From the NCBI GenBank assembly GCA_001794635.1, contig MGKE01000014.1, forward strand, positions 112,984 to 176,983: 64,000 nucleotides of DNA. The letters run 5' to 3'. Shown here piece by piece: positions 9,195-47,448 of the stretch. The stretch comes from Candidatus Yanofskybacteria bacterium RIFCSPLOWO2_01_FULL_39_28. GTDB lineage: Bacteria > Patescibacteriota > Minisyncoccia > 2-02-FULL-40-12 > GWA2-44-9. Made by a program: the position numbers and the translations under genes. Position 1 is the first letter of the stretch. The number at the start of each line of letters is the position of its first letter. The notes beneath the pieces are model-generated. The model had not been told where the DNA came from. It searched no databases and saw only the letters and a program-made list of their open reading frames with translations.

Positions 9195-10268
9195 TTAGTG
9201 CACCGGCTTATAATCTACCACGCGCTGGTCCTCGGAAAGGTCAAGAAACTCTTCCAACCAGGCAGCGTATTCTCGATCTTCTTGATTTCTCAACTCTTCA
9301 ACACTCGGAATGCCATCAGAGTCTTCAGAGTCTTCAATCTCTTCGGTTACCAGTAAGACTTCTTCCGATTCAACTGTCTCGGGTGTCCCCAACTCCACTT
9401 CTTCTCTCCTTAAAGCGTCATCGAGTTTTCTTCCCAAAAATTTAATCCAAAAATCTCTATCAACATATTCCATTTTTTGCGATACCGAAATATCAAAAAC
9501 ATCATACCATTCCGTAGGAGACGGTCTATATCCTCCGACCGGAAACCTTGGGTCACCGTTGCCAACTGAAAATATGCTCCACCACGAAGAATGAATTTTG
9601 TCGCGAATATCAGGGAGATACGGATCCATGGATCTTAAATGCCTGTAGAGCCTCAGAGTTGAAGCAAGCGTAGATCTGACATGAGACCAATAGGGCCGAT
9701 CGGGGTGAGTAAATCGATTAAAAAACTGCTTCGGCAAGGAAACCGCCAGGTCAAACCAGTCGCTTTTATCAACTTCGTGTTTTTCAATATGAAGATCGGG
9801 ATAAGAGATGAATGAGGTCATCTGTCCCCAGAGTGTTATTTTTCTATGTCCCCCTGGACAAATAATTCCTCTCTTGTTAACACGATCTTTGTATTTGTAA
9901 TCAAACAAAAAAACTCCTGGATAGTTGGTAATTATCTCAATGTCCCGATAACCAGTTTCACAAACAAATTCTCTTATTCCACCGGCAATGATCAACTTTT
10001 GAGTCTCGCTTAGTGAACGATCGGCAAGAATTGGATGATCGGGGCCATAAAGTTCTACTAATCTTTCTCGATCGTCTGCTTCAAGCCCACCGCCACCATT
10101 GCCCCAGCCGGCTTTTTTGGATTCATTATCGTAATACTCAAGATTAGGACTTTCCTGTTCTTCAAGGTTGTGAGCCCACCTAAACATAGTTGGGATATGA
10201 GGATGTCGAGCTAAAACTTGAACGGTTATACCTTTATTGTTGGGATCAACCCAGGATGGCAAGGCCAT
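9195..10268 (-). CDS. island gene 1: hypothetical protein with acidic C-terminal tail
   Basis: 357 aa, no motif I recognise. SD GGAG lies upstream. GC is visibly higher than in the flanks. Confidence 0.6.
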   Translation of the reverse strand: MALPSWVDPNNKGITVQVLARHPHIPTMFRWAHNLEEQESPNLEYYDNESKKAGWGNGGGGLEADDRERLVELYGPDHPILADRSLSETQKLIIAGGIREFVCETGYRDIEIITNYPGVFLFDYKYKDRVNKRGIICPGGHRKITLWGQMTSFISYPDLHIEKHEVDKSDWFDLAVSLPKQFFNRFTHPDRPYWSHVRSTLASTLRLYRHLRSMDPYLPDIRDKIHSSWWSIFSVGNGDPRFPVGGYRPSPTEWYDVFDISVSQKMEYVDRDFWIKFLGRKLDDALRREEVELGTPETVESEEVLLVTEEIEDSEDSDGIPSVEELRNQEDREYAAWLEEFLDLSEDQRVVDYKPVH

Positions 10269-10374: not shown

Positions 10375-11295
10375 CTATCTTAGACTAACAGCTCTTTGAA
10401 TCATCTTCTCCACACTTCGGCGAAGATTATAATCCCGACGGACATGGGCAATTGTCCCATAGGCCGTTCGGAGTTTGCTTGAATAAGCCATCCAGCGACC
10501 ATATCCATTGCTAATCACGTAGCCAGGAACATGACGCTCGTGTGAAAGACGCAAGGTAATAGAAGATGCAATTACTAAATAGCGCCGGAATAATTCAAAC
10601 TCTTTCTCAATAGTCATATCGTTCTGCAACAACTCTTCATCCAATGATTTAGCCAATTCACTTACAACATCAAGAAAACCATACAAGTAAGCCTGGGTGT
10701 TGCCTTGGAAATTTTTCCAAGAGACTACCGCCGGTACCTGGTCAGTTCTTCCAACAATCACTGGCCAAATCTTGCCGAACAAGTTGGCTTCAAACGCTTC
10801 TTGCCAGATCGTCCGGCTGAAACGGTTACCAGTCTCGGCAATTTCACCGTTAACCGAGGCTTCATTGAGACCTAACGAAAGTCGCTCCATGTCATTTTCA
10901 AGAAAAGCCATTTCTTCTTCAGAATTTGCATCGCCCATCTGCGCTTCATTAATATAAGCCTTGCTCAAATCACTCATCAGGTTCTGGGATGAATAACCTA
11001 CTGTGCCATAATTTCTCCGCAGGCGGTCAAGGTGTTCATGCAAACCGTTCATGGCTTCATCCATTTTTTCATACATATGAAAGTCACCAACTGGATCAGG
11101 AATAACAACCCTCGGTTTTTTGATTCTGCGCAGAAATTCGTCAGCTCTTACATCTCTGGTATCTCTCTGTCTTTCTGCTGTTTGTTCTTTCGGGACTGAA
11201 TTAAGTGCCAAGAGATAACCTTCATCAAGTTGCCTTTTTCTGTCTTTGATTTCAGACAAAAAATCACCGGGTGGCACGCTCTGCCTTTCTTCCAT
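10375..11295 (-). CDS. island gene 2: hypothetical protein, possible translin/TRAX-like helical nuclease fold
   Basis: 306 aa. AYLYGFLDVVSELAKSL resembles the translin/TRAX DYLxGxxDxxGELxR helix, and QEAFEAN gives ExxE upstream. This is a recollection-based similarity only. Confidence 0.55.
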   Translation of the reverse strand: MEERQSVPPGDFLSEIKDRKRQLDEGYLLALNSVPKEQTAERQRDTRDVRADEFLRRIKKPRVVIPDPVGDFHMYEKMDEAMNGLHEHLDRLRRNYGTVGYSSQNLMSDLSKAYINEAQMGDANSEEEMAFLENDMERLSLGLNEASVNGEIAETGNRFSRTIWQEAFEANLFGKIWPVIVGRTDQVPAVVSWKNFQGNTQAYLYGFLDVVSELAKSLDEELLQNDMTIEKEFELFRRYLVIASSITLRLSHERHVPGYVISNGYGRWMAYSSKLRTAYGTIAHVRRDYNLRRSVEKMIQRAVSLR

Positions 11296-11452
11296 TGTCT
11301 GTCTCTCTCCTACCTTCCCGTACTTGTTAAATAGCTGTTAGGCAACAGCTGCTTAGGTTTTTATCGGGTTAAAACCTAAAAAGCTATCGCCTAAAAATAT
11401 AGTTATAAAATACACCATTTCACAAACCTTGTCAATAATTTGAGGGTTGGGG

Positions 11453-11481
11453 TTGACAAAATCAGTGTTTCTTGCTACAAT
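11453..11481 (+). promoter_or_regulatory. near-consensus sigma70 promoter for island gene 3
   Basis: TTGACA (11453-11458), a 17-nt spacer, then TGcTACAAT (-10 at 11476-11481). The -35 is the right half of the inverted repeat TTGTCAA(11429-11435)-N17-TTGACAA(11453-11459). Confidence 0.6.
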
Positions 11482-11589
11482 GTATCCATACGGTGCAGTC
11501 CCGCACCTTGACAACGACAATCACCGATTTGGCTATGAGTTTGAAGGTTTTACCCGATACTCATCCAAGTCAAAACAGGAGAAAAACAG

Positions 11590-13509
11590 ATGGAAACGAT
11601 GCAGCATGCTTTCAAAAATGTTGGCACTGGCAGGGGGCAGAGTGCGACCAAACGGGCCGCGAACGAACTCAAGCCAGTCCCCACCCCGGCCCAGTTCAAG
11701 GCCATGGTGGAGTCGCGGCTGGCCAGGTTACGTCAAAGGACGACCCAACAGGCCGATGAGGAGGTGACGGAATACATAGCCGCCCTCAAGGGCCAGGAAG
11801 AGGAAGTTCTCTCTGCTATCGAGCAGGAGAATGAGCTCAAGGAAACGTTCCGTCAGGGCACGGTTGACCGGACGGACGCCGACCGACGGATCGCCGAGTA
11901 CACCGCCCTCAAGAACGAGATACAGGGTCAACTCCGGCAGTACGCCGGAGATCCTGAATACGCTCAGGCCTATCAGGATGCCTCACAGCTGATGAACACG
12001 CGTCGCCAGGCACAGGCCGCAGCCGATCAGATCGCCGAAGATCATCGTCGGGCCTACGAAGGCACCGAGGATCGTCCCCAGCCGTATGGCAAAGGGACGG
12101 CCGATGTCATCAACGCCGATGTGGAATCGGCGGTGGCTTCCAACTTCGTCGTCAAGACGGAGAAGGGAGAAACGGCGACCTTCACCTGGAAGGGCGTCGG
12201 CTACCGCTCGGTTCGGCCCGCCGACTCGATCGTATCCGCCCCAGCTCTGGAACTCGCCAACTTCATCGGCGAGTCCCAGAAGTTCCGCAACGAGCGGAAC
12301 GATGAGGTGGAGAACCGAGTCAGGTGCGACGGCTTCCTGATCTCGTTCAAGAGCGAACCCGATGGAAAGGGTGGCAAGCTCCCCTCGGAACTGGATCTGA
12401 TCCAGGAAGAGGTGGGGGTTTTCGTCAAGACCCTGACCGCGCTTTGTGCCGGCAAGGGCGAGAAGACTCTCGTCCGCCTGCCAGATCGGCAGGGCGAAGT
12501 GCTTCTGGAGCGAGTTGCTCCGGGATCATCGGATGCGTTCCTGACCCGGGCGACAAACGCCAGGGTGGCGGATCAGCTCTTCTACTGGGATGACCGCAAC
12601 AACCCGGGGGCAAGGGCCAAGAGGAAGATGTACGCCATCAACCTCAACGATCTCACTTTTGAGAACGTTCGTCCGGGCTGGTTCGGCGACGCCATGGCGG
12701 AGCAGATCCGCCGGGAAGCGCAGTCCCAGGAAAACTGGAAGAGGGCCGACGGCTTGCGGGATGTCTCGCAGGTTAAGTACCTCATCCCAGCCAACGGGCT
12801 AGCCTACCTTCGGGAAGTCGGCACGTGCGTCGTGGACGCTCGTCCGACTTTGATGATTGGTGGCCGTGAGCATCAGCATGAGCTGACGCTCCACATCATT
12901 GGTCTGGACAACGACGAATTCCAGGTCACGGAGTTTGTTCCGGGGACGGTTGAAAGACTGGACCCGGCGAAGACCTGGCTGGTACCTGCCATTGAAAAGC
13001 CCCAGCCACGCCGGCTCCTCCGCGAGGTAGCCGAGTGGAAGGAAGTCGTCAAAGCCAACTCGTGGTCAGACCGCGATTGGCAGGTCAATCGGGAAGCGGC
13101 ACAGCGCGGAGCTGTCGCCATAACCCGGGAGAACCAGAACGACTTCTGGGGCATCAATGAGGGCGAAGGCAAGGACGGTTTCTACACCGTCCGCGGCAAC
13201 GCCCGAGGACGGTTCCTCGAAAACGATTCGGTCGGTCGGCCGCAGTTTGAGCAACACGCGGCCGGATTCATCGTCCAGCGGACTAGTTCGGAAACGGACC
13301 AGCCGATGTTAGAGATCGTCTGGCACGTGCCCTACGGCAAATCGGCTGAAATCGCCAAGGGTAACCGTGGCAAGCTCCCGCTTGCCAACATCCCGAACCA
13401 AATCCGAGGAGTCCTCGGAAACGTCTACTACTTGGTCAACCGGACCAAGGGTGGACCTCGGGTGGCCACGCCGGCTCACCTCATTCCCGTCAAGCAGGTC
13501 AAGGAGTAA
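11590..13509 (+). CDS. island gene 3: large GC-rich hypothetical protein
   Basis: 639 aa. AGGAG lies 8 nt upstream of the ATG. N-terminal coiled-coil-like region, no motif recognised. One sampled line (12001-12060) is 39/60 G+C, against 25/60 at 8101-8160. Confidence 0.7.
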   Translation: METMQHAFKNVGTGRGQSATKRAANELKPVPTPAQFKAMVESRLARLRQRTTQQADEEVTEYIAALKGQEEEVLSAIEQENELKETFRQGTVDRTDADRRIAEYTALKNEIQGQLRQYAGDPEYAQAYQDASQLMNTRRQAQAAADQIAEDHRRAYEGTEDRPQPYGKGTADVINADVESAVASNFVVKTEKGETATFTWKGVGYRSVRPADSIVSAPALELANFIGESQKFRNERNDEVENRVRCDGFLISFKSEPDGKGGKLPSELDLIQEEVGVFVKTLTALCAGKGEKTLVRLPDRQGEVLLERVAPGSSDAFLTRATNARVADQLFYWDDRNNPGARAKRKMYAINLNDLTFENVRPGWFGDAMAEQIRREAQSQENWKRADGLRDVSQVKYLIPANGLAYLREVGTCVVDARPTLMIGGREHQHELTLHIIGLDNDEFQVTEFVPGTVERLDPAKTWLVPAIEKPQPRRLLREVAEWKEVVKANSWSDRDWQVNREAAQRGAVAITRENQNDFWGINEGEGKDGFYTVRGNARGRFLENDSVGRPQFEQHAAGFIVQRTSSETDQPMLEIVWHVPYGKSAEIAKGNRGKLPLANIPNQIRGVLGNVYYLVNRTKGGPRVATPAHLIPVKQVKE

Positions 13510-13531
13510 CAACTCCAAGGCCTGAACACCA

Positions 13532-13576
13532 AACCCCTCATCCAGCACACAGCTGGATGAGGGGTTGTTCTTTTTT
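13532..13576 (+). terminator. strong rho-independent terminator after island gene 3
   Basis: aacccctcatccagc-acaca-gctggatgaggggtt followed by gttctttttt. Confidence 0.85.
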
Positions 13577-13584
13577 ATAAAGTA

Positions 13585-13593: not shown

Positions 13594-13679
13594 ACCACCA
13601 TCTATGAAAGGATTGTATCTTTAACAAAAAAGGCCTAAACGGCCGGACCAAGTAAAACTTGGCCCAAAGGAGAGACGGG

Positions 13680-14738: not shown

Positions 14739-14781
14739 GCCCCGACAGGTTTACATGAATCTCATGTAAACCTGTCGGGGC
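14739..14781. terminator. bidirectional hairpin terminator between convergent island genes 4 and 5
   Basis: Perfect 20-bp stem gccccgacaggtttacatga / tcatgtaaacctgtcggggc with a 3-nt loop. Confidence 0.75.
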
Positions 14782-14797: not shown

Positions 14798-15946
14798 TCA
14801 CCAAATCTCCAGAAAATTAAGTGACTGAAGTGATTGGAGGTAGCGAACTTGGCAGTCTTTGCGAACCTGATTCATAACCTCATAAGAAAGATGGCGAATG
14901 AAGTTTAAGAAAAATAACAGCAAATTCTGATCGCTGGTCAAATCGTGTAACAATTTGACGTAATAAGTCTCCTCTTGCGGTGTCAGTTCCTTTCTCATTA
15001 AGGGTTTGTCCAAACAACCCTGGAGAGCTGGCCAAAAGCAGGACTCCATCGTTTTTTCAACCCAACTCATCTCACTCTGACTGCTTGCCAGTTTATCCAC
15101 AGCCAAAAGAAAGAGACTAACTTGACGACAAGGTATCCTGCCTTGAAGTTCTAAAAATATTTCGTTAAGTTTTGGTTTCAGCTTATCAATCAGCTTCAGG
15201 ATTAATAGTTCTAGCTTGGTTAATCGGCCTGGTCCAAACTTGGTTTCCGGCCTAAACTCGGGCCAAATCTGTTTTGCAATGAAAAGCGCCTCTTCGTAGC
15301 TAAACTCCAATTCAACCAGTTTCCATCCTTTAGGGATATCGTTCTTAAACCGAGTCGCTTCTCCAAAAGGAACAACAAGCACTCGCTCAAACTCCTCTGG
15401 AACAACCAGTTTTCTTTTCCTGAAAAAGTCGTGGGTCGCCTTGCCTCCTTCAAGATCCTGAGCAAAGTGACGAAGAGCGATTTCTTGACGCCCCGGCTGC
15501 CAGCGCCTCTCTCGAAAGGCTTCGTATGATGTCTTGACTTCGCCTATACCGCGAACGGTAATTCTTCGGCCGACATAGTCCAGCCAAATAAAGTCACTGT
15601 TGGCCTGACCCCCTTCGTGAAGAACAGAAGTAACCAGTTGGCTAGCTACCTCGCCACGATCAGTGTTGTGGGACAGCTTTGAAGAAAAGTGTGCCAACCC
15701 CTCAACCACAAAACCGAAACCCGAGAAGTCAGGTCTAGTAGGATCACAGCCAGTCGACCCAAACCGACTCTGGAGATAAGGAACCTCCTTCTTCCAGAAC
15801 TCCCTCAAAATATCCCATTTTGTCATAATCGGCGCGCTGTTGAAGCTGTAAGCCGATGATAACAAAAGGTCATTAAAACAAGACAATAAATCAGCTGGCA
15901 GTTGAACAGATACGGATCTAGACGCCACCGACGACTTTTCAGACAT
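14798..15946 (-). CDS. island gene 5: PD-(D/E)XK-type nuclease-like N-terminal domain plus unknown helical C-terminal domain
   Basis: 382 aa. FIWLDYVGRRITVRGIGEVKT gives the D...E-x-K spacing typical of restriction-endonuclease-like folds. GGAGGTG SD lies upstream. Confidence 0.6.
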   Translation of the reverse strand: MSEKSSVASRSVSVQLPADLLSCFNDLLLSSAYSFNSAPIMTKWDILREFWKKEVPYLQSRFGSTGCDPTRPDFSGFGFVVEGLAHFSSKLSHNTDRGEVASQLVTSVLHEGGQANSDFIWLDYVGRRITVRGIGEVKTSYEAFRERRWQPGRQEIALRHFAQDLEGGKATHDFFRKRKLVVPEEFERVLVVPFGEATRFKNDIPKGWKLVELEFSYEEALFIAKQIWPEFRPETKFGPGRLTKLELLILKLIDKLKPKLNEIFLELQGRIPCRQVSLFLLAVDKLASSQSEMSWVEKTMESCFWPALQGCLDKPLMRKELTPQEETYYVKLLHDLTSDQNLLLFFLNFIRHLSYEVMNQVRKDCQVRYLQSLQSLNFLEIW

Positions 15947-15974: not shown

Positions 15975-16003
15975 TTGACAAATTGCTTACTTTATAGTAT
16001 ACT
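15975..16003 (+). promoter_or_regulatory. near-consensus promoter for gene 6, in a shared divergent control region with gene 5
   Basis: TTGACA-17 nt-TATACT. The 10-bp palindrome TAGTATACTA (15995-16004) overlaps the -10. A TATAAT on the minus strand (16006-11) faces gene 5. Confidence 0.55.
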
Positions 16004-16052
16004 ACATTATACCCGACAAGGCAATAGTGCTATATTTTATAAGAATAAAGCC

Positions 16053-17564
16053 ATGTTTACTGCAAAACCAATTTTTAATCCAGAAAAAAACACCCTTCTT
16101 TTGGAAATAAAGGGAAATTTACCCGACCTTATTCTGGACGGTGATTTGGCGTTAAAAATTGAGCGCAAAGGATTTGAAAAAAGAAAAGAGCTCCACATAA
16201 CCGTTTTGGGGTTCAAAAGCGGAAAAAGGATTAGAGAGGCTTTGGAAAAAATACCGGACAAAGAAACAATAATTGAAGCACTGATCGGTATGGCCGAAAA
16301 CACCGAATGGACTTTTGACGTTAATCCTGAAAGATTCCATATCTCAAAAAATGAAAGGGAATCAATAATTCAGATGGTAAAACTGGATGGCATTGATAAT
16401 TTTTTTGACAGATTAAACGGATTATTAAACACCGACATAGAAACTCCTCCGCCTCACATAACTTTATATACCAAAGGTGTAGATGAAAGAAGTGGGATGA
16501 GCGGTATCGGCATAAATTCCCAAGAAGAATTTGAAAAACTAAATCCAAGGCCAGTCATTGCTCAAAAACCGGATAAGCCAGCCGGGGCAAAAGTTTATAC
16601 CAAAATCATTCTGCCGACTCGTCCGCAACCGGATACCATTGTTGCTATTTTCATATTGAAAAAATTCGGTGAAGAAATATTCCCCGGTATCAAAACAGCG
16701 TCTGTTGATTTCTGGCAAGTGCCGCCAGAAAAAGAAACGGAAGAATCACTGGACAAAAAGGGTATAATTTTGATTGACCTCGGCGGAGGCAGGTTTGACC
16801 ACCACGCCATAAAACCCCAGACAACCGCTTCTGACTTAATATCTTCTCATTTGGGAGTTGCTGATGATTCCGCCTTAGCTAAACTTTTAGAATACGCCCG
16901 CAGGGATGACTTTTTCGGCAAAGGAACTGTTTCCGAAGATCCGATAGATAGGGCTTTTGGCTTATCTTCAATGATAGCCGTCCTAAACAAAAGTTTGGTT
17001 AAAAATCCGGCCAAAGTTGTTGAACTTATCCTTCCTCTTCTGATTGCCCACTACAATGAAGAGGTGAAAAGAACTAAAGAACTGCCGGAAGAATTTGAAA
17101 AAAAACTTTCAAGTGGAGAAGCTGAAACTTTTCCAGTCAGACAGAGAGATAAAAAATTAAAAGTCGTTATTGTTAATTCAGAAAGCGGCAGTCTGGCCGG
17201 TTACCTGCGTTCCCAAAACGGTGGCCGGTTTGACGTCGTCGCCCAATGGCTGCCTTCCAGCCACGTAAACATTTTAACTCGCCCAACTAAAAGAATTGAC
17301 TTGAGGTCTCTTGCTGCTTTGTTGAGATTAGAGGAAGCCACTGCTTCGGGTCTAGATTTAACTTTGAGTGTCCGAAGTTTAGCCGGTTACGGAAGAATAA
17401 AAGAAATCCCTGAATGGTATTATGATCCAGCCACCAACTCTATTCAAAACGGCGGACTAAACCCAAAGGAAATAAACCCGACCAAAATACCCAGAGATAA
17501 ATTTAAAAAAATAATAGAACTTGGGCTTTCCGAACAGCTTTGGAGCCCAAGAGAACAATATTGA
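16053..17564 (+). CDS. gene 6: 2H phosphoesterase (LigT-like) domain fused to a MYG1/UPF0160 (DHH-type)-like domain
   Basis: Start moved to ATG 16053 (MFTAKPIF). It has two H-x-T motifs, LHITVLG and PHITLYT, about 85 aa apart. The later ILIDLGGGRFDHHA and TASDLISSHLG resemble MYG1 DVGGxYDxxxxRYDHHQ...SSAGLIY. Confidence 0.65.
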   Translation: MFTAKPIFNPEKNTLLLEIKGNLPDLILDGDLALKIERKGFEKRKELHITVLGFKSGKRIREALEKIPDKETIIEALIGMAENTEWTFDVNPERFHISKNERESIIQMVKLDGIDNFFDRLNGLLNTDIETPPPHITLYTKGVDERSGMSGIGINSQEEFEKLNPRPVIAQKPDKPAGAKVYTKIILPTRPQPDTIVAIFILKKFGEEIFPGIKTASVDFWQVPPEKETEESLDKKGIILIDLGGGRFDHHAIKPQTTASDLISSHLGVADDSALAKLLEYARRDDFFGKGTVSEDPIDRAFGLSSMIAVLNKSLVKNPAKVVELILPLLIAHYNEEVKRTKELPEEFEKKLSSGEAETFPVRQRDKKLKVVIVNSESGSLAGYLRSQNGGRFDVVAQWLPSSHVNILTRPTKRIDLRSLAALLRLEEATASGLDLTLSVRSLAGYGRIKEIPEWYYDPATNSIQNGGLNPKEINPTKIPRDKFKKIIELGLSEQLWSPREQY

Positions 17565-19582: not shown

Positions 19583-19656
19583 GGGTGTGTAGCTCAGCTG
19601 GTTAGAGCATTTCACTTATAATGAAAAGGTCCCTGGTTCAAATCCAGGCACACCCA
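19583..19656 (+). tRNA. tRNA-Ile(UAU)
   Basis: Hand-folded cloverleaf with acceptor gggtgtg/cacaccc, anticodon stem tttca/tgaaa and loop cuUAUaa. No encoded CCA. Confidence 0.85.
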
Positions 19657-19660
19657 CATT

Positions 19661-36032: not shown

Positions 36033-38186
36033 TTGATACCGCAATTTACAGTAGAAAAATTGAAGAATAGGAAGAAAAAAGTTAAGAAGGTTATTAAATC
36101 CTTAGTCACACTGGCCGTGTGGTTTTTTGTAGTTGGTATAATTGTTTTCTTGTCTTACTTTATCTACCTTCAAAGAACTATCCCCGATCCGGAAACTCTT
36201 ATTTCAAGAAAGGTGGGGGAATCAACTAAAATATACGACTCTACCGGCACAGTTTTGCTTTATGACATCCACGGCGAAGAAAAAAGAACCATCATTCCTT
36301 GGGAAGATATCACCAGTTATGTTAAGTGGGCCACTTTGGCTTCAGAGGATAGTGATTTTTATAAGCATCGCGGAGTTGATTTTAATGGTATCGCCCGAGC
36401 TTTTTTAAAAAACCTAATGGAGGGTGGTATATCTCAGGGCGGATCAACGATTACTCAACAACTGGTTAAAAAAGCTCTCTTGGGTGATGAGCGAGCTTCC
36501 ACTTTTCGTCTGGTTACCAGAAAAATAAAAGAGATTATTCTAACAGTTGAAATTGAGAGAAAATATAGCAAAGATGAATTATTTTGGATGTATTTAAACC
36601 AAATACCTTATGGTTCTAGCGCTTATGGTATTGAGGCGGCTAGTAAAACATTTTTTGATAAACCAACCAAGGATCTTACTTTAAACGAAGCGGTTGTTCT
36701 TGCTTCTCTGCCCAAGGCTCCGACTTTTTATTCTCCTTATGGCAGTCATGTTGAAGAGTTAGTGGTTAGAAAAAATCACACCTTATCCAGAATGCTTGAT
36801 CTGGGGCATATAACCCAAGAAGAATATGATCAAGCAAAAAAAGAAGAGGTTGTCTTTCAGCCAAGCGTTGACAAAATTACCGCTCCTCATTTTGTTATTA
36901 TGGTCAGGGAATATTTGGTTTCTAAATACGGCGAAGACGCTGTTGAAAAAAATGGTCTTAAGGTGATAACCACCTTAGACACCGAGCTCCAAAAAATAGC
37001 TGAGGAGGCTGTTACAAAATATTCTGAAATAAACAAAGAAAAATATAAAGCCACCAATGCCGCTTTGGTGGCCATAAACCCCAAAAACGGAGAAGTTGTA
37101 GCTATGGTCGGCTCAAGTAATTATTTTGATATTGAAAACGAAGGTAATTTCAACGTAACAACTGCTAAAAGGCAACCTGGTTCGGCTTTTAAACCCTTTG
37201 CTTACGCTGTTGCTTTTCAAAAAGGATATCCCGATGGAACTATTGTCTTTGACACGAAAACAGAGTTTAATCCAAACTGTAAACCTAACGCTTTGGAGGA
37301 AAAAGATGAGTTTGGTTTAGACTGTTATCATCCCGAAAATTATGACGGCCGTTTCCGCGGACCGGTTACTCTAAGAAATGCTTTGGCTCAATCATTAAAC
37401 GTCCCTTCTGTTAAAACACTTTATTTGGCTGGAGTTGAGGATACTATAAAACTGGCTGAATCTATGGGCATAAGCACCCTCCAAGACCGGTCCAGATTTG
37501 GCTTATCTCTTGTTCTTGGTGGTGCAGAAGTAAGGCCGATTGACCTTGTCTCAGCTTATGGAGTTTTTGCTAATGATGGAATTAGGAATCCTTGGAATTT
37601 TATTAGAAAAATTGAATCTGGTAGCGGTGAAATTCTTGAGGAACAAAAACTAAAGCCCGAAAGAGTTATTGATTCTTCTGCGACTCGGCTTGTAACTGAT
37701 GTATTGTCGGATAACAATGCCCGCTCCTCTGTCTTTGGTTATTCAAGCTCTCTTTATATTCCCTCCAGAGAAGTTGCTGCAAAAACAGGAACGACCCAAG
37801 AAAACAGAGACGCTTGGGTTGTTGGTTATTCTCCAAATATTGCTGTTGGCGTTTGGACAGGTAACAATAAAAATGAATCTATGACAAGAGAAGGTGCTGG
37901 TATCAGCGCTTCTGGGCCTATGTGGAAAGAGTTTATGGTTAAGGCGTTAGAAAAATATCCTTTTGAGGGCTTCCAAAGACCTGATCCTGTTTTCTCAAAC
38001 AAAATAATGCTAAGTGGCCAATATTTTGATCCAGACCACGAAGTTCACAACATTCTCCACTATATTAACCGCTCCCAACCCGCTGGATCAATTCCATCAA
38101 ATCCGTTAGAAGATACTCAATATATAAACTGGGAATGGTCAGTTAGAAATTATTTCGGTTTGTCTTTGCCTAATTTACCTAATTAG
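36033..38186 (+). CDS. bifunctional penicillin-binding protein 1A-type (glycosyltransferase + transpeptidase)
   Basis: 717 aa with a TTG start. GT51 motifs EDSDFYKHRGVD and GGSTITQQL, plus SAFKP (SxxK), SLN and KTGTT. Confidence 0.9.
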   Translation: MIPQFTVEKLKNRKKKVKKVIKSLVTLAVWFFVVGIIVFLSYFIYLQRTIPDPETLISRKVGESTKIYDSTGTVLLYDIHGEEKRTIIPWEDITSYVKWATLASEDSDFYKHRGVDFNGIARAFLKNLMEGGISQGGSTITQQLVKKALLGDERASTFRLVTRKIKEIILTVEIERKYSKDELFWMYLNQIPYGSSAYGIEAASKTFFDKPTKDLTLNEAVVLASLPKAPTFYSPYGSHVEELVVRKNHTLSRMLDLGHITQEEYDQAKKEEVVFQPSVDKITAPHFVIMVREYLVSKYGEDAVEKNGLKVITTLDTELQKIAEEAVTKYSEINKEKYKATNAALVAINPKNGEVVAMVGSSNYFDIENEGNFNVTTAKRQPGSAFKPFAYAVAFQKGYPDGTIVFDTKTEFNPNCKPNALEEKDEFGLDCYHPENYDGRFRGPVTLRNALAQSLNVPSVKTLYLAGVEDTIKLAESMGISTLQDRSRFGLSLVLGGAEVRPIDLVSAYGVFANDGIRNPWNFIRKIESGSGEILEEQKLKPERVIDSSATRLVTDVLSDNNARSSVFGYSSSLYIPSREVAAKTGTTQENRDAWVVGYSPNIAVGVWTGNNKNESMTREGAGISASGPMWKEFMVKALEKYPFEGFQRPDPVFSNKIMLSGQYFDPDHEVHNILHYINRSQPAGSIPSNPLEDTQYINWEWSVRNYFGLSLPNLPN

Positions 38187-38462
38187 TATCTTGTTCAGTT
38201 TAATCTTGTTTTCTTTAAAAAACGAGTTGATACTTAATAGCTGAAGGGTTAGCTCGTTGGCTATAACTTTATTGTCTGTGTTTATTGTTAAGCTGTTCTC
38301 TTTGGCGTCATAGTTTAAAACAAAAGAAAAACCCATAATATCGTCTCCGAATTTGTTTTTTAAAAAAGAATAGAAGCTGGTTTTTATAATAGCTAATTTA
38401 TCTTGTGATTTGCTGAGATAATTTTTTCTTTTTTCAAAAAGATTATTAATACTTTTCAGCAT
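38175..38462 (-). CDS. DUF721/DciA-like small protein
   Basis: 95 aa immediately downstream of dnaN. SLTINTDNKVIANELTLQ resembles the DUF721 'GTLTV...AWAQEL' segment. Confidence 0.5.
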   Translation of the reverse strand: MLKSINNLFEKRKNYLSKSQDKLAIIKTSFYSFLKNKFGDDIMGFSFVLNYDAKENSLTINTDNKVIANELTLQLLSINSFFKENKIKLNKILIR

Positions 38463-38466
38463 GTTT

Positions 38467-39558
38467 TTACCTTCTAAGTGGCATTATAAGATAGGTGAGG
38501 TCTTTGGATTCATGTTCTGGTCTTAAAACTAAGGGGCTTCCTTGGCCGGTATATTCTATAATTACATGCTCGGTCGGTATTATTTTTAAACCGTCCAATA
38601 AGTAGTGGTGGTTTAAAGAGATATCAAACGGCTCGTTTTTAAGCAGAGCTTCCGTATTTATTTGAATCTCTCCTTTGTCTGCATTCTTAGCTGTAATTGT
38701 AAGTTGTTTTTCATTACAACTTAATTTAATATCGGCAATATTAGATGAGAAAATACCAGCTAAACGCACATTTTTGTCTAAGTCTTCTTTTTTAACCAAC
38801 ATTCTTGAAATATATTTATCTGGAATTACTTTCTTATAGTCGGGGTAATTACCGTTAACCAATCTAGAAACAAGCTCTATTGCGTCAGTAGAAAAAGAGA
38901 CCTGATTATCATCGTATCTGACAATAACATCTTCGTTAATATCCCCTAAAAATCTTATTAACTCCAAAACAGTTGATCTTGGTAAAATAAAAGAATTATT
39001 ATTTTTATTTTTTAAATCAATAATTCTTTCGGATAATCTAAAACTATCCGTTGAAGAAAATATCAATTGTTTATCGTTAAACTGAATAAATACCCCGGCT
39101 AATTCTGGTCTTGTTTCAGAAACAGCAACAGAATCAAAGACAGAATTTAATCCTGATTTTAATATTTTTGAAGGAATTGTAGAAAATATCTCTTTTTTAA
39201 TTTTTGGTATAATCGGAAAGTCTTTAGTGTCAAAACCTAATATTTGAGTCTTATATTTTTCGGTATTTATTGTTAAAATATTGTTTTTAGTAGTTAGGGT
39301 TATTTTTTCTTCCCCGGTGTTATTTACAAAATCGGAAAATATTTTTGCCGGAACAGCTATTTCACCTGTTTCTTCTACTTTAGCTCCTAATAAACCACTG
39401 ATTCCTATCTCTAAATTAGTAGCTATTAATTTAAGCCGTCCATTTTCTGTTTTCAGTAAAATATTATTTAAAATAGGCAAAGAAGGGTTTCTTGAGATAA
39501 CCCTTTCAATTACAGAAATAATTTTAGTTAAATTTTTATGATTAGTAGTAATCTTCAT
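38467..39558 (-). CDS. dnaN: DNA polymerase III beta sliding clamp
   Basis: 363 aa. PILNNILLK, the three-domain length, and position after dnaA. Confidence 0.9.
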   Translation of the reverse strand: MKITTNHKNLTKIISVIERVISRNPSLPILNNILLKTENGRLKLIATNLEIGISGLLGAKVEETGEIAVPAKIFSDFVNNTGEEKITLTTKNNILTINTEKYKTQILGFDTKDFPIIPKIKKEIFSTIPSKILKSGLNSVFDSVAVSETRPELAGVFIQFNDKQLIFSSTDSFRLSERIIDLKNKNNNSFILPRSTVLELIRFLGDINEDVIVRYDDNQVSFSTDAIELVSRLVNGNYPDYKKVIPDKYISRMLVKKEDLDKNVRLAGIFSSNIADIKLSCNEKQLTITAKNADKGEIQINTEALLKNEPFDISLNHHYLLDGLKIIPTEHVIIEYTGQGSPLVLRPEHESKDLTYLIMPLRR

Positions 39559-39789
39559 TAGATATATAAATACTTATTATTACTATTATTAAGGAAGTAT
39601 ATTTTGTTTATAAGTTTTTAAAATGAATTTATGAATGACGTATTACTTGGAGTATTTTAAAAAATACTGGTTTAACATCTTGTTTATAATTTTATATATA
39701 ACTCTGGATAAGTAGCGGACAACTTTTTAATAAAATACTAATAACTAATGAATAATTATAATTAAATCATCATCAAAACAATTAATCCA

Positions 39790-41160
39790 CTACTTATCAA
39801 AAGAATTATAAACACGTTCTCTAATCATAACCAACTCTTGTTTTACAGACTCATCATTATTCTCTTCCCTTTTGATTTTTTCACAAGCATGAATCACTGT
39901 TGAGTGATCGCGACCACCCAACTTTTGCCCTATTTCAGGAAAAGATAATTTAGTCTCTTCTCTTAATAAGAACATGGCCATTTGTCTCGGTCTGACTATT
40001 TCTTTTTTCCTACTTCTTTTGATTAGATCACTTGGGGAAATATTATAGAAATCAGCAATATTTTTTAAAACAACCTGGGACGATGCTTTTTTGTAAGGAT
40101 TGTTCAAATAGGTAGCTAGAATATTTTTGACCTCTTTTGTGCCAGGAGGTTTGTTGTATATTTGGCTAAAAGCAATAACCCTATTTAAAGCACCCTCAAG
40201 TTCCCTAACATTTTTCTGGATATTTGTGGCTATATAAGTCACGGTTTCATTGTCCAACTCCTGATTTTTTTCCAGCATTTTTAATTTTAGTATAGCCAGC
40301 CGTGTTTCAAAGTCAGGAATACCAATATCGGCTATCATGCCGCCCTCAAAACGTGATTTGAGCCGTTCTTCTAAAGCAGGAATAGCTTTTGGGGGACGGT
40401 CAGAAGACAGGACGACTTGTTTGTTTTTCCCATGAAGCTCGTTAAATATTTGAAAGACCACTTCTTGGGTCCTTTCTTTTCCGGCAATAAATTGAATATC
40501 ATCAATAATCAGAAGATCTAGTTTTGAATAGGTGTTTTTTAGGTCCTCTATTGTTCTGTTGCGGATAGATTCAATCAGGTCAGCTGTAAGTTTTTCAGCA
40601 GATATGTATAAAACATGACTGTCTTTATATTCTGCAGATATTTTATTGCCGATTGATTGGAGAAGGTGGGTTTTACCTAAGCCTACTCCACCATAAATAA
40701 ATAAGGGATTATAAAGTTTGCCTAAATTTTTAACTATTGCTAACGAAGCCGCGTGAGCTAGTTCATTATTGGATCCAACAACAAACGATTCAAAAGAGTA
40801 CTTTTTATTAAGGTTGGTATATTTATCTATATCTTTTAAAGAATCAGGTATTACCTTTTCCTCTAAGTCACGATCTAAGAAAGGTTTAGGAGTTGTTTTT
40901 AGCTCAATTTTGGGTGTTCCCACCACATACCTGACCTCCCTTACTTCAGGAGAAAACCCCCTAATTGAGTCCAGAATGCGTTTATTAAATTTATTCTGTA
41001 ACCATTCTCTAATAAAACCATTAGGAACACTCACCACTATTGATTGACCGTCCTTAGACAAAATCAAAGTATTCTTAAACCAGGTCGTAAAATTCGCCTT
41101 AGTTAATGAAAGCTCCATCTCACCCAATACTGCTTTCCATAATTCTTCATTGGTCATCAT
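39790..41160 (-). CDS. dnaA: chromosomal replication initiator DnaA
   Basis: ATG 41160 preferred (MMTNEELW). Walker A GGVGLGKTHL, Walker B LLIIDDIQF, and the C-terminal DNA-binding GGRDHSTVIHA. Confidence 0.95.
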   Translation of the reverse strand: MMTNEELWKAVLGEMELSLTKANFTTWFKNTLILSKDGQSIVVSVPNGFIREWLQNKFNKRILDSIRGFSPEVREVRYVVGTPKIELKTTPKPFLDRDLEEKVIPDSLKDIDKYTNLNKKYSFESFVVGSNNELAHAASLAIVKNLGKLYNPLFIYGGVGLGKTHLLQSIGNKISAEYKDSHVLYISAEKLTADLIESIRNRTIEDLKNTYSKLDLLIIDDIQFIAGKERTQEVVFQIFNELHGKNKQVVLSSDRPPKAIPALEERLKSRFEGGMIADIGIPDFETRLAILKLKMLEKNQELDNETVTYIATNIQKNVRELEGALNRVIAFSQIYNKPPGTKEVKNILATYLNNPYKKASSQVVLKNIADFYNISPSDLIKRSRKKEIVRPRQMAMFLLREETKLSFPEIGQKLGGRDHSTVIHACEKIKREENNDESVKQELVMIRERVYNSFDK

Positions 41161-41287
41161 GGGTTTAATTATAACCAACGTAATAAAAATAACATAAGCA
41201 CTGAAAGTTTATATGATGTTTATAACAAGTGGATAAATGTTTACAATATTGACTATGGCATAAAACATGTATATACTACAAATTAAT

Positions 41288-41426
41288 ATGAATCCCCACA
41301 CTCAGTTAGGATTTGCGACCTAGTGTTTTATGGGTTTGTGGGAAAAACATGTGTATAAATTTAATTTTGGTTAGAATATTATTCCAAAATCGCAATGGAA
41401 ACATATCCTAACTGAGTGTGGGGATG
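41288..41426 (+). promoter_or_regulatory. CCCCACACTCA hairpin element on the rpmH start codon (copy 3), directly after a TTGACT-17-TATACT promoter
   Basis: ATGAATccccacactcagttaggat (41288-41312) pairs with atcctaactgagtgtggggATGAAG (41405-41429). Mini-ORF MNPHTQLGFAT. The promoter is at about 41250-41278. Confidence 0.7.
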
Positions 41427-41561
41427 AAGATTACCTTATATCGTCCAAAAAAGAAGAAAAGAAAAAGAAAACACGGCTTTTTTAAACGATCACAATCCAG
41501 ATATGGCAGAAGAGTTTTAACGCGCCGAAGAAGAAAAGGGAGACGTAAACTAACAGTTTAG
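41424..41561 (+). CDS. rpmH: 50S ribosomal protein L34
   Basis: My translation is [45 protein letters not shown] (45 aa). It is below the ORF-track length cutoff. Confidence 0.9.
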
Positions 41562-41563
41562 AT

Positions 41564-41914
41564 ATGCCCCTCCCCAGAAAGAATCGCCTAACTGATAAAA
41601 AGGACTTTGATATGGTTTTTAAGGAAGGAAATGCTGTAAAAGGCAATTTTTTGTTTATAAAATACAAAAAAAACACTTTAACTAATTCGCGAGTTGCCTT
41701 TATTGTTCCCATTAAAGTTGCTGGTAATGCTGCCAATAGAAACAGGATAAAAAGAATATTTTCCGAACAAATTCGTAAAAAAATTACCGACTTTAAAAGT
41801 AAGTATGACATTGTAATCACACTTAAACGTAAAGAAAAAGAAGATAGTCTAAAACATGAATTAATGGATTTATTAAATCGAACTAGAATACTAAATGAAA
41901 AAAACAGTAATTAA
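41564..41914 (+). CDS. rnpA: ribonuclease P protein component
   Basis: 116 aa. [17 protein letters not shown] and NRNRIKR, positioned after rpmH. Confidence 0.9.
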
Positions 41915-42119
41915 ATTTATTAAAGGCTACCAATATTTTTCCCACACCTTGCTTAGGCACAATGCCTTACCTTTATTTTTCCCCTCTGTTTGTAGATTTT
42001 ACCCAAGCTGTTCAGAGTATACCATTGAGATGATTGATAAGTGCGGCCTTTGGAAAGGCTTGCTTAAAGGTTTAAACAGAATATTGAAATGTAACCCCCT
42101 TACTACTAATTACAAATAG
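41895..42119 (+). CDS. yidD: membrane protein insertion efficiency factor YidD
   Basis: 74 aa. [11 protein letters not shown] motif. The last codons (TTNYK) are supplied by hairpin repeat H2. Confidence 0.88.
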
Positions 42120-42192
42120 ACCCAAATATACAAATTTACGAATTAAATTTATTTGTAGATTTGTACATTAGATAAAATTAGTAATTAGTAGA
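42101..42192. repeat. TACGAAT/TACAAAT hairpin repeat, copy H2
   Basis: tactactaattacaaat...tacaaatttacgaatt / atttgtagatttgtac...gtaattagtagat. It overlaps the yidD 3' end and ends 6 nt before the yidC ATG. Confidence 0.8.
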
Positions 42193-42197
42193 TAAAA

Positions 42198-42902
42198 ATG
42201 ATGGAATTATATAATACAATTTTATACGAACCACTTCTTAATGCTGTCGTTTTTTTGTATAATATTTTGCCTGGCAACGATTTTGGTTTAGCCGTGATTG
42301 CCCTTACTATTATTATCCGATTAATATTCTTCCCCCTTACTGTTAAAACCATTCTTTCCCAAAGAGCTCTTAGTAGAATCAACCCGCAAATGAAGGCCAT
42401 CAAGGACAAATTCAAAAATGACGTCCAAGCCCAGTCAGCTGCAATAATGAAGTTGTACAAAGAAAATAATGTTAACCCATTATCGGGTTGCTTACCCTTG
42501 TTGATACAACTACCGATACTCATAGCCTTGTATCAAGCTTTTGGGGCTGGATTTAAACCGGACAACCTCGGACTTATCTATAATTTCATAACTAAACCGG
42601 AAAATATTAATCCTATTTCTTTTGGTTTTTTGAATATTACTTCAAGGAGTGTTATTTTAGCTATAATAACTGGCGCCTTTCAATTTATCCAACTTCGTCA
42701 AAACCAAAATTTAATGCAAAACAACTCCGACGGTGTCCAGAAAGAAATGCAGGCACTTAATAAGCAAATGTTGTATATTTTCCCGGTAATGATTATAATT
42801 ATTGGTTGGAACTTGCCGGCCGGTTTACTGCTTTATTGGGTGACTACGACCTTGTTCTCAATGGGAGAACAGACGTATATTAGAATGAGATATAAAAACT
42901 AG
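42198..42902 (+). CDS. yidC: membrane protein insertase YidC (short Gram-positive-type)
   Basis: 234 aa. GLAVIALTIIIRLIFFPLT, NPLSGCLPLLIQLPI, and GLLLYW. Confidence 0.9.
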   Translation: MMELYNTILYEPLLNAVVFLYNILPGNDFGLAVIALTIIIRLIFFPLTVKTILSQRALSRINPQMKAIKDKFKNDVQAQSAAIMKLYKENNVNPLSGCLPLLIQLPILIALYQAFGAGFKPDNLGLIYNFITKPENINPISFGFLNITSRSVILAIITGAFQFIQLRQNQNLMQNNSDGVQKEMQALNKQMLYIFPVMIIIIGWNLPAGLLLYWVTTTLFSMGEQTYIRMRYKN

Positions 42903-42938
42903 AAATTTAAAATTCAGCTTGGATATAAGAATTAAAAC

Positions 42939-43421
42939 ATGGAAAATGAAAATAGTAACAATATAAAAGAAAGAGTTATGGAAACCGTTCAAGGGATGGC
43001 TGGCTTTATGAACTTAGAATGCCAAGTTAACCTAAAAGAAGAAATAGACGATCGTAACAACAAATCCCTACTCGTGTCTGTCTACACACCCGAAAACGCC
43101 AGTCTTCTTATAGGCAAAAATGGTCAAAACTTAAAGGCCCTAGAACAGATTTTAAGAAGTATTTTTTTGAAAAAAATCACTGATATTAATAATATCGTTG
43201 TTGATGTAAATGATTATCGCAAATCTCAAACTAACCATCTGGTTGATTTGGCCAAACAGACCGTAACTCGAGTCCGCAGTACCCAAAAAGCCGAAGCCAT
43301 GTTTCCTATGTCGCCTTATGAAAGGAGAATTGTTCATATGGAACTTGCTTCTTGCCCAGATATTACCACAGAGAGTATCGGTGCAGAACCAAATCGTAGA
43401 ATAGTAGTAAAACCACTTTAA
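42939..43421 (+). CDS. Jag/KhpB-type KH + R3H RNA-binding protein
   Basis: 160 aa. GKNGQNLKALEQIL (KH) and ERRIVHMEL (R3H), positioned after yidC. Confidence 0.8.
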   Translation: MENENSNNIKERVMETVQGMAGFMNLECQVNLKEEIDDRNNKSLLVSVYTPENASLLIGKNGQNLKALEQILRSIFLKKITDINNIVVDVNDYRKSQTNHLVDLAKQTVTRVRSTQKAEAMFPMSPYERRIVHMELASCPDITTESIGAEPNRRIVVKPL

Positions 43422-47127: not shown

Positions 47128-47448
47128 TTATTTATCTGACACGATTACCTCATTTAATTTTAAGCCATCCCCCTCTTTTTTAAAAATATATTGTTTCGGC
47201 CCTATAAAGTAATTGAGCCCGTACATAATGTAATTTACTAAAGGGGTTTCGTTGATTTTGACGAAAGCTAAAGAAACAGCTATTCCCCCGATAGGGATGG
47301 CTAAAACAAAAAACGCATAACTTGGCAGAATCATATACATCAAAAACAAAATCGCTCCACCCGAAGCCAGCCACAAAAACTGCTTTAGCGTGAACGGACC
47401 GATTAATTTAGTCTCGGTTTCAATGAATTGGGGGACTTGGAATTTCAT
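47128..47448 (-). CDS. PrgI/VirB3-like small two-TM T4SS protein
   Basis: 106 aa. MKFQVPQFIETETKLIGPFTLKQFLWL, then two TM segments. Confidence 0.6.
   Translation of the reverse strand: MKFQVPQFIETETKLIGPFTLKQFLWLASGGAILFLMYMILPSYAFFVLAIPIGGIAVSLAFVKINETPLVNYIMYGLNYFIGPKQYIFKKEGDGLKLNEVIVSDK

Follow-up and report, generated by a model that had tools for sequence, protein, structure and literature searches.

The window analyzed here is a 64-kb stretch of the chromosome of Candidatus Yanofskybacteria (Patescibacteria, candidate phyla radiation or CPR; class Paceibacteria), a host described as an ultra-small parasitic bacterium. Between a gene with an S1 domain (S1) and ftsH, it carries a gene encoding a 639-amino acid (aa) protein whose G+C content (GC) is 0.606, against a window mean of 0.395. 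We found that the composition of this gene and of its orthologs (the family gene) is a stable, gene-specific equilibrium, with a GC at third codon positions (GC3) of about 0.7 in genomes at 0.35–0.5, and that its coding sequence (CDS) folds more stably than expected. The interpretation that we favor, with a confidence that is about evenly balanced, is that this is a native yet exchangeable gene whose high GC is actively maintained by selection on its mRNA, and that it is the fastest-diverging member of a conflict-type module.

The GC3 of the gene (0.741) stands far above the host-typical value of ~0.34 and above those of the other 54 open reading frames (ORFs) of the window (0.22–0.50), the second-highest value (0.504) being that of its downstream neighbor. 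The sequence-only reading of this DNA had singled out the gene by eye as the most GC-rich stretch of the window and had pointed to many shadow ORFs on both strands; the gene indeed ranks first of the 55 ORFs, and the two strands carry ten overlapping ORFs that are 60 aa or longer. In bins of 60 nt, the rise in GC is even and limited to the CDS, with a dip across its first ~40 nt, and the flanking intergenic bins, which contain promoters and terminators, fall to 0.25–0.28. Codon usage resembles that of a genome of ~60% GC: every G/C-ending codon is preferred, including CGG, TCG, ACG, and CCG, and C-ending codons are strongly preferred in the two-fold families. This is unlike the genes of ribosomal protein L19 (GC3 0.384) and S1 (GC3 0.363), the two highly expressed genes that we compared. 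The amino acids are shifted as well: the residues G, A, R, and P make up 0.31 of the protein versus 0.21, the residues F, Y, M, I, N, and K 0.21 versus 0.31, and the R/K ratio is 1.7 versus 0.6.

Several observations indicate that the ORF is a real gene under purifying selection and not contaminant sequence. Its pairwise ratio of nonsynonymous to synonymous divergence (dN/dS) is 0.17–0.33. The identical protein was found on 13 independent contigs in the same context and arrangement, and the sequence is therefore neither a chimera nor a contaminant. GyrA of the window shares 84% identity with metagenome-assembled genomes of Candidatus Yanofskybacteria, which places the host in this group. All 11 readable loci, which are partly non-independent and represent about six distinct lineages, present the family gene in the same chromosomal slot, with protein identities of 27–100%. 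The order of genes is gyrA, a 116-aa gene, a gene of the metallo-beta-lactamase (MBL) fold, S1, a gene of ~360 aa on the opposite strand, a beta-CASP ribonuclease (RNase) gene, the family gene, a partner gene of ~340 aa, a gene of ~390 aa on the opposite strand, and ftsH. A 306-aa gene takes the place of the RNase gene in two cases, the window and locus L002. The module holds no integrase or transposase, and we saw no repeat boundaries. Relatives were not found by megablast and tblastn against 50,697 phage records and 72,556 plasmids, nor by pattern scans with the alignment of close homologs in IMG/VR and JGI metagenomes or, outside of the clade, in 185,579 GTDB species representatives.

The compositional spike is a lasting property of the family. 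GC3 is 0.65–0.77 in all 11 loci, whereas neighbors and flanks are at 0.33–0.50, and the spike is kept in members that are only 27–32% identical to the protein of the window. In L089, a GIY-YIG gene with a GC3 of 0.295 lies directly between the RNase gene (0.47) and the family gene (0.75). The overall GC of the family gene is nearly constant (0.57–0.62) across hosts of 0.39–0.48. Synonymous changes polarized by parsimony gave a ratio of GC-to-AT versus AT-to-GC changes of 64:28. We considered and ruled out that this ratio reflects a decay towards AT: simulations at stationarity with a GC3 of 0.74 predicted a ratio of 2.2–2.4, owing to parsimony bias, and under a model of decay towards 0.35 the GC3 would already be about 0.5. 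The ratio matches the stationary simulation and the decay model misses, which indicates a long-term compositional equilibrium that is specific to the gene. In one allelic class, it has held its GC3 at 0.71–0.75 while co-diverging with its neighbors to a synonymous divergence (dS) of about 1. Its synonymous sites are also slower: dS is 0.94 versus 1.4–1.6 in neighbors at the same divergence, and 1.23 versus 3.6 at a deeper split. Finally, of 776 ORFs surveyed in related loci, four exceeded the median GC3 of their locus by more than 0.3; the gene of the window ranks second among these four outliers, most of which lie within this interval.

We then considered the folding of the transcript, which was computed. 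Under a naive synonymous shuffle, z-scores ranged from -5.8 to -12.3 in 10/10 orthologs, versus -3.2 to +1.4 in eleven genes of the window. Such a shuffle with AT-rich controls only overstates how unusual the gene is; we used strict shuffles, which leave the encoded protein, codon usage, and every dinucleotide unchanged, together with a GC-rich baseline from outside. Relative to the strict shuffles, the CDS of divergent orthologs folds 12–21% more stably (z of -6.3 to -11.2), and the excess is about zero in gyrA and FtsH. Ten genes of mycobacteriophage L5 (62% GC) presented an excess of -2 to +12% (mean of ~6%), and the family lies above this baseline (Mann–Whitney p = 0.0007). In 11/11 loci the sense strand has the larger excess, with 6.4 versus 4.4 kcal per 120 nt for the antisense strand (Wilcoxon p = 0.0005). 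Selection on the transcript predicts such a bias because G·U pairs count in the sense RNA only, and a symmetric process acting on DNA does not predict it. UA dinucleotides and A/U runs are also depleted in the family CDS. These results show that the excess folding and its sense-strand bias are real for the family, and that what orthologs conserve is how much structure they form, any specific structures being putative. The sequence-only reading had offered strong codon or structural constraints as one of two explanations for the composition, and the slow synonymous sites and the excess of transcript secondary structure both favor it.

The family gene belongs to a module that is hypervariable. 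Depending on the genome, the S1–ftsH interval holds nothing, is short, or extends to ~8 kb; S1 directly adjoins FtsH in some relatives, and the module is missing from a few. Between genomes, the identity of the family protein is unrelated to that of S1 (Spearman rho = -0.04). From the window to L087, identity is 0.90 at gyrA and S1 and 0.94 at FtsH, and it falls within the module to 0.56 at the gene i357, 0.32 at the family gene, 0.62 at the partner gene (i356), and 0.40 at i382, before rising to 0.81 at i529. This draws a divergence valley between flanks that are ~90% identical, with its minimum at the family gene. The pair L087 and L088 presents another profile: S1 and FtsH are at 0.72 and 0.74, i357 is at 0.52, the partner at 0.60, and i382 at 0.63, while the beta-CASP RNase (absent from the window) reaches 0.81, exceeding the flanks, and the family gene stands at 0.65, double its value from the window to L087. 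The window and L002, at the same housekeeping distance (S1 at ~0.90), share 81% identity in the family protein. Since these identity profiles are discordant with the flanks, the module has been exchanged between lineages as allelic classes.

Relatives without the family gene carry unrelated GC-rich genes in the same interval, with a GC3 of 0.65–0.88 and lengths of ~200–355 aa. Their proteins present CxxC...H...C motifs and/or Arg/Gly-rich (RGG-like) tails and had no match in Pfam. Four of these genes (in L007, L018, L010, and L067) adjoin the beta-CASP RNase gene, and the CDSs of the unrelated genes fold 5–17% more stably than strict shuffles.

The signals surrounding the gene are those of a separate and probably strong transcription unit (Table 1). 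Its promoter, which the sequence-only reading had read as TTGACA-17-TGcTACAAT, gave the best match in a 9-kb scan and is present as described. A -35 of TTGAC[A/T] with a spacer of exactly 17 nt was found in 8/8 family loci examined and, by eye, also in L087–L089, and the extended -10 in nearly all of them. The inverted repeat TTGTCAA-N17-TTGACAA, which had been called operator-like, is also in place (11429–11459) and is non-random, with one found against 0.01 expected by chance. However, a fixed geometry did not hold up. An inverted partner of the -35 is present in 5/8 loci with gaps of 4, 4, 13, 16, and 17 nt and is absent from the other three; the left arm is conserved in L002 and L003, yet at 4 nt from the -35, and in L085 the partner belongs to the terminator upstream, of which it forms the other arm. 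This variable spacing of half-sites argues against a classical dimeric operator. In addition, one arm plausibly doubles as a -35: read on the minus strand, the left arm is matched by a -10 (TATTTT, 11412–11407) and may serve the divergent 306-aa gene. Three of the ten TTGACAA heptamers of the window lie within 86 bp, and the copy in the leader is conserved. Regulatory use of these sites is possible; profile searches detected no helix-turn-helix or other DNA-binding domain in the module proteins.

The leader, whose length of about 100 nt and hairpin had likewise been predicted, spans 78–152 nt across family loci. In an alignment of six loci from two subfamilies, 89% of the cells of the 5' hairpin are paired, versus 14–50% in slid controls, and two pairs present compensatory GC-to-AU changes; the hairpin is not evident in L004, L084, and L085. 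For the leader as a whole, the folding z-score is only -1.3, and RNAalifold on six whole leaders gave zero consensus pairs. Rfam yielded nothing in the leader and three sub-threshold matches (E of 0.1–0.17) in the 9-kb stretch, at the terminator and inside i382. Two boxes, TTGACAAC and GATTTGGCT, are kept in the leaders of the window and of L002, L003, L004, L084, L085, and L087, even between alleles with only ~30% protein identity, and TTGACAAC repeats the sequence of the -35 at about +21. These boxes could be the site of a regulator, a site of autoregulation, or stretches of homology through which cassettes are exchanged. All family loci have a strong Shine-Dalgarno sequence. In the window it ends 7 nt upstream of ATG 11590, and for this reason we favor this start over the database call at ATG 11599 (636 aa). 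The terminator, with the 15-bp stem that had been noted, is kept in all family loci with differing stem sequences. The TATAAT of the partner gene that follows it is invariant in four close loci and present in all distant ones.

Long-lived bacterial mRNAs classically owe their stability to a 5' stem-loop, a strong ribosome-binding site, a GC-rich structured body, and a 3' hairpin. The family gene presents a conserved stem-loop near its predicted 5' end and, as judged from consensus matches, a strong promoter, a Shine-Dalgarno sequence, a monocistronic unit, and a terminator. Together with the structured body, these elements would fit a stabilized mRNA.

Although the protein had been described as an orphan, it is not a singleton. 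A profile search of 1.84 billion representative proteins retrieved 23 family members (clusters), mostly full length (590–650 aa) and all from Yanofskybacteria-like genomes. Four close homologs are 100, 81, 71, and 51% identical, and a homolog search of a word index, queried with the family alignment, yielded these four proteins again and no others. In the sense of lacking a known domain or fold, the description stands. Neither the protein nor five neighbors matched Pfam, NCBIfam, PHROGs, or PADLOC; in PADLOC, the six proteins of the module region had zero matches at E < 0.1. A PDB sequence search with a 19-member profile returned only coiled-coil noise, and PDB searches of three neighbor proteins returned nothing. 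The 19-sequence alignment revealed common motifs (including LPSELD, GEVLLER, ERDWQ, and VPG.S) and invariant residues of structural character (G, W, N, Y, P), with no conserved set of catalytic-looking residues. From this alignment, AlphaFold produced a model with a mean predicted local distance difference test score (pLDDT) of 84.6; with only four sequences the pLDDT was 40 and the model was not usable. The model presents a disordered basic N-terminus, long helices at residues 33–156, which bear out the coiled-coil-like region suspected by the sequence-only reading, and then mixed alpha/beta domains. Searches with Foldseek against PDB and BFVD gave nothing below E = 0.02, with template modeling (TM) scores of about 0.1. 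A hydropathy scan found no signal peptide or transmembrane segment in the family or its module partners, the maximum 19-residue hydropathy being at most 1.3 versus 2.3–2.5 in membrane controls. The family likewise presents no secretion signal or cell-wall anchoring domain of the kind expected of an S-layer or secreted surface protein, and its composition is Arg/Glu/Gln-rich and cytoplasmic-looking. The modeled protein appears to be soluble and of a new fold, and it is probably non-enzymatic. We suggest, with low confidence, that it may be an abundant cytoplasmic structural or binding component.

Table 1. Features of the locus and of related loci (positions are those of the window unless a locus is named)
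Feature	Position	Strand	Remarks
Module gene i357	9195–10268	-	
Module gene i306	10375–11295	-	Position held by beta-CASP RNase in most relatives
Left inverted-repeat arm TTGTCAA	11429–11435	-	TTGACAA on the minus strand; plausible -35 of the divergent 306-aa gene
Sigma-70-type promoter	11453–11481	+	-35 TTGACA 11453–11458; 17-nt spacer; extended -10 TGcTACAAT 11473–11481; consensus match 11/12
Predicted 5' leader, ~102 nt	11488–11589	+	Start predicted from the -10 position
5'-proximal stem-loop GGTGC/AGTCCC/GCACC	11492–11507	+	4 nt from predicted 5' end
Conserved leader boxes	11508–11534	+	TTGACAAC 11508–11515; GATTTGGCT 11526–11534
Shine-Dalgarno AGGAGA	11577–11582	+	7 nt before ATG
CDS of the family protein, 639 aa, 71 kDa	11590–13509	+	GC 0.606; GC3 0.741
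Intrinsic terminator	13532–13576	+	15-bp perfect stem, 5-nt loop (stem unit 13532–13566); T run to 13576
Extended -10 of partner gene, TGgTATAAT	13575–13583	+	Directly after the terminator
Partner gene (i356), 356 aa	13659–14729	+	GC3 0.50; 3' of the family gene in every locus
Module gene i382	14798–15946	-	GC3 0.47; hypervariable, 40% identity where flanking genes are at ~90%
Unrelated GC-spike gene	L007: 4903–5721	-	
Unrelated GC-spike gene	L018: 4795–5646	-	
Unrelated GC-spike gene	L010: 5370–6170	-	
Unrelated GC-spike gene	L067: 5149–5970	-	
Unrelated GC-spike gene	L005: 4678–5745	+	
Unrelated GC-spike gene	L014: 2243–2860	-	

Under the interpretation that we favor, the gene would be vertically resident in Candidatus Yanofskybacteria yet open to exchange by recombination, and it would be transcribed alone, and presumably at a high level, from its near-consensus extended -10 promoter. 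Selection on the mRNA itself would be the most likely cause of its high GC: a GC-rich body with few A/U runs and UA dinucleotides, an excess of pairing, a 5' hairpin, and a 3' terminator could make the message resistant to ribonucleases and thereby long-lived and high-yielding. The surrounding module comprises four or five genes between S1 and ftsH, usually with a beta-CASP RNase, that are swapped between lineages. Such a hypervariable, swapped module suggests a role in an arms race (defence or host interaction), of which the 639-aa protein may be an abundant structural or binding component.

Several observations weigh against this interpretation. GC at first and second codon positions and the amino acid composition are shifted too, as biased gene conversion would predict. 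The unrelated GC-rich genes of the same interval could mean that the process acts on the locus rather than gene by gene. GC-rich genes of phage L5 also fold in excess, so that the signal of the family is two to three times the baseline but not unique. Most base pairs differ between orthologs, with a structure conservation index of 0.43 on average, and of the few windows with high structure conservation the best one overlaps the most conserved peptide. The genome of the window lacks the beta-CASP RNase, and self-protection from that enzyme cannot therefore be the general reason for the structured message. Finally, the locus is absent from the metagenome-assembled genome (MAG) of Ca. Yanofskyibacterium that was used for metatranscriptomics (Kuroda et al. 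2024).

The composition has one main rival explanation, namely a recombination hot spot between S1 and ftsH that is subject to GC-biased gene conversion: frequent homologous recombination, with a mismatch repair that favors G/C, would raise GC at all sites, and the excess RNA structure would be a by-product of GC. Lassalle et al. (2015; PMC4450053) found that recombining bacterial genes present a higher GC3 and are enriched in non-optimal G/C-ending codons, and the family gene follows this expectation in favoring G/C-ending codons regardless of optimality. Conversion would also account for the shift at all codon positions and in amino acid usage, for the high GC of unrelated genes in the interval, and for the GC3 shoulders on the adjacent module genes (0.45–0.59). 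It is further consistent with the exchange of alleles between lineages, with the centering of the divergence valley on the family gene, and with the presence of homing-endonuclease genes near some loci. We nevertheless consider it unlikely. The reported bacterial effect is slight (R2 of 0.03–0.09; PMC4450053), whereas the shift in GC3 is here about +0.4. The boundaries of the spike are sharp at the ends of the CDS, and a gene with a GC3 of 0.295 abuts it. Alleles that are 30–60% identical cannot form a heteroduplex within the gene, and therefore the observed replacements do not themselves generate a conversion bias. Lastly, the folding excess is two to three times the GC-rich baseline and is sense-biased, which a process acting on DNA does not predict.

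A second possibility is that the gene is repeatedly re-imported from an unsampled pool of ~60% GC (a virus, a plasmid, or another organism), the copies being too young to have decayed. The movement of allelic classes between lineages, a gene GC that is nearly constant whatever the GC of the host, and a codon usage resembling that of a ~60% GC genome all speak for it. However, no relatives were detected in phages, plasmids, IMG/VR, or GTDB representatives outside of the clade, all 11 contexts correspond to the same chromosomal slot with host-type promoters, and the gene has held its GC3 while co-diverging with its neighbors. We regard this scenario as quite improbable, and more so than gene conversion.

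Ordinary translational selection, that is, extreme expression with codons matched to the tRNA pool, appears very unlikely. The promoter, Shine-Dalgarno sequence, and terminator do suggest high expression, the window encodes tRNAs with C34 anticodons (Lys-CTT, Ala-CGC, Pro-CGG), and C-ending codons are strongly preferred in two-fold families. Yet L19 and S1, the two genes available for comparison, present no such bias (GC3 of 0.38 and 0.36), the preference extends to every G/C-ending codon including usually rare ones, and the amino acid composition is shifted as well. As for the recent, independent acquisition that the sequence-only reading had put forward, or an assembly contamination, the atypical composition and the lack of homologs of known function are outweighed by synteny across 11 loci down to ~27% identity, compositional equilibrium, a native and conserved promoter, leader, and terminator, and 13 independent contigs of identical arrangement, and we consider it refuted, the more so as no sporadic distribution, amelioration, mobility genes, or donor were found.

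A broader version of the interpretation that we favor is that one hot spot holds a whole class of exchangeable cassettes "designed" as GC-rich, base-paired, and nuclease-resistant messages, including those of the unrelated Arg/Gly-rich proteins. The module, serving conflict or host interaction and centered on a beta-CASP RNase, would then stay expressed while AU-rich RNA of the cell or of an invader is destroyed, and within it the 71-kDa protein, with its new fold, would have a structural role or be associated with RNA. This version is speculative and we think it improbable as a whole; under it, the cassette class would be nature's equivalent of the superfolder mRNAs made by engineering.

Other features of the locus and its surroundings deserve mention. 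The mechanical start of the partner gene is TTG 13659, and its own Shine-Dalgarno sequence, AAGGAGAG (13667–13674), lies inside the resulting ORF. The true start is probably TTG 13680 (GTG in L002), for a protein of ~349 aa. A hairpin with a 20-bp perfect stem (14739–14781) separates the convergent partner and 382-aa genes and looks like a bidirectional terminator. Farther downstream, the 529-aa protein (15975–17564) carries in its C-terminal half the sequence LIDLGGGRFDHH, which by eye resembles DHH/MYG1-type phosphoesterases; such a motif-level resemblance of the 529-aa and 356-aa neighbors to DHH/MYG1 proteins was borne out by no profile (for the 529-aa protein, even at E < 5). With 81% identity between genomes, the 529-aa gene varies much less than the core module does. 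In relatives, genes of homing-endonuclease type occur near the locus (L089: 7478–7741; L087: 16696–17376; L086: 356–3955), with a GIY-YIG gene (GC3 0.295) directly upstream of the family gene and a LAGLIDADG gene downstream of ftsH, and gyrA carries an intein in several genomes.

Elsewhere in the window, positions 38000–43000 form the most AT-rich stretch (GC of 0.27–0.34), an outlier of the opposite kind and a more conventional candidate for foreign DNA than the 639-aa gene. A tRNA-Ile with anticodon UAU was predicted by ARAGORN at 19583–19657, adjoining a tRNA-Val(UAC). Genes resembling type IV secretion components, which are typical of CPR genomes, are found at 1676–2107, 44618–46375, and 47128–47448 (a type IV secretion system pilin, a TraG/VirB4-like ATPase, and PrgI); they may have a bearing on how the bacterium interacts with its host. 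In the Ca. Yanofskyibacterium MAG that lacks the locus, which comes from a cultured enrichment and is the basis of the only published Paceibacteria metatranscriptome, gyrA is a 159-nt fragment at a contig end and ftsH is not present (PMC10936435, supplementary Table S2). In MAGs of this kind, the anomalous GC of the locus may disrupt assembly or binning.

An atypical composition is routinely taken as a sign of recent horizontal transfer, and the family gene is a clear counter-example. If our interpretation is correct, it would represent the strongest natural case known to us of gene-specific selection on the G+C content and structure of a bacterial mRNA, and it would call for caution in the calling of horizontal transfer and in the binning of contigs when these are based on composition. 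It would also flag an uncharacterized hypervariable module, with a protein that has no fold relatives, in a CPR lineage that parasitizes archaea and in which host-interaction genes are actively sought.

Among the closest known systems are S-layer genes with exchangeable cassettes, such as slpA of Lactobacillus, rsaA of Caulobacter, and the slpA cassette of Clostridioides difficile. As predicted for the family gene, these are monocistronic: a very strong promoter drives them, a stabilizing stem-loop opens their long 5' leader, and a strong terminator closes the unit. They likewise encode hypervariable proteins whose alleles are swapped by recombination in conserved flanks. In contrast, the family gene encodes no signal peptide, transmembrane segment, known secretion signal, SLH domain, or other S-layer domain, and its protein is Arg/Glu/Gln-rich and cytoplasmic-looking. 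A GC shift of such size is not, to our knowledge, a feature of S-layer genes.

A second comparison is with the variable islands of defence or conflict genes that sit between core genes at fixed hot spots. The interval between S1 and ftsH is variable in the same way, as a hot spot with presence/absence and replacement of its contents between lineages, a nuclease (the beta-CASP RNase) is usual, and all module proteins are uncharacterized. Unlike such islands, the module presents no homology to catalogued defence proteins (no PADLOC match for any of six proteins), has no mobility genes, and keeps a conserved gene order. Foreign islands also tend to be AT-rich, and this one is rich in GC.

Katz and Burge in 2003 and Raghavan, Kelkar and Ochman in 2012 reportedly described bacterial genes in which selection acts, across the genome, on local mRNA structure and on G+C. 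There too, coding sequences are more stable than synonymous shuffles and GC-rich versions can be favored independently of codon adaptation. Those effects are small, however, whereas a single gene is here displaced by +0.4 in GC3 with a folding excess of 12–21%, and this state is kept across a whole clade in which the neighbors are AT-rich. With bacterial GC-biased gene conversion (PMC4450053), the family gene shares a higher GC3 and non-optimal G/C-ending codons, but it differs by a far larger magnitude, by the confinement of the signal to the CDS, and by a sense-biased excess of RNA structure. Two findings are new here: this excess folding of a coding sequence, and the position of the gene as the most divergent point of an exchanged hypervariable module.

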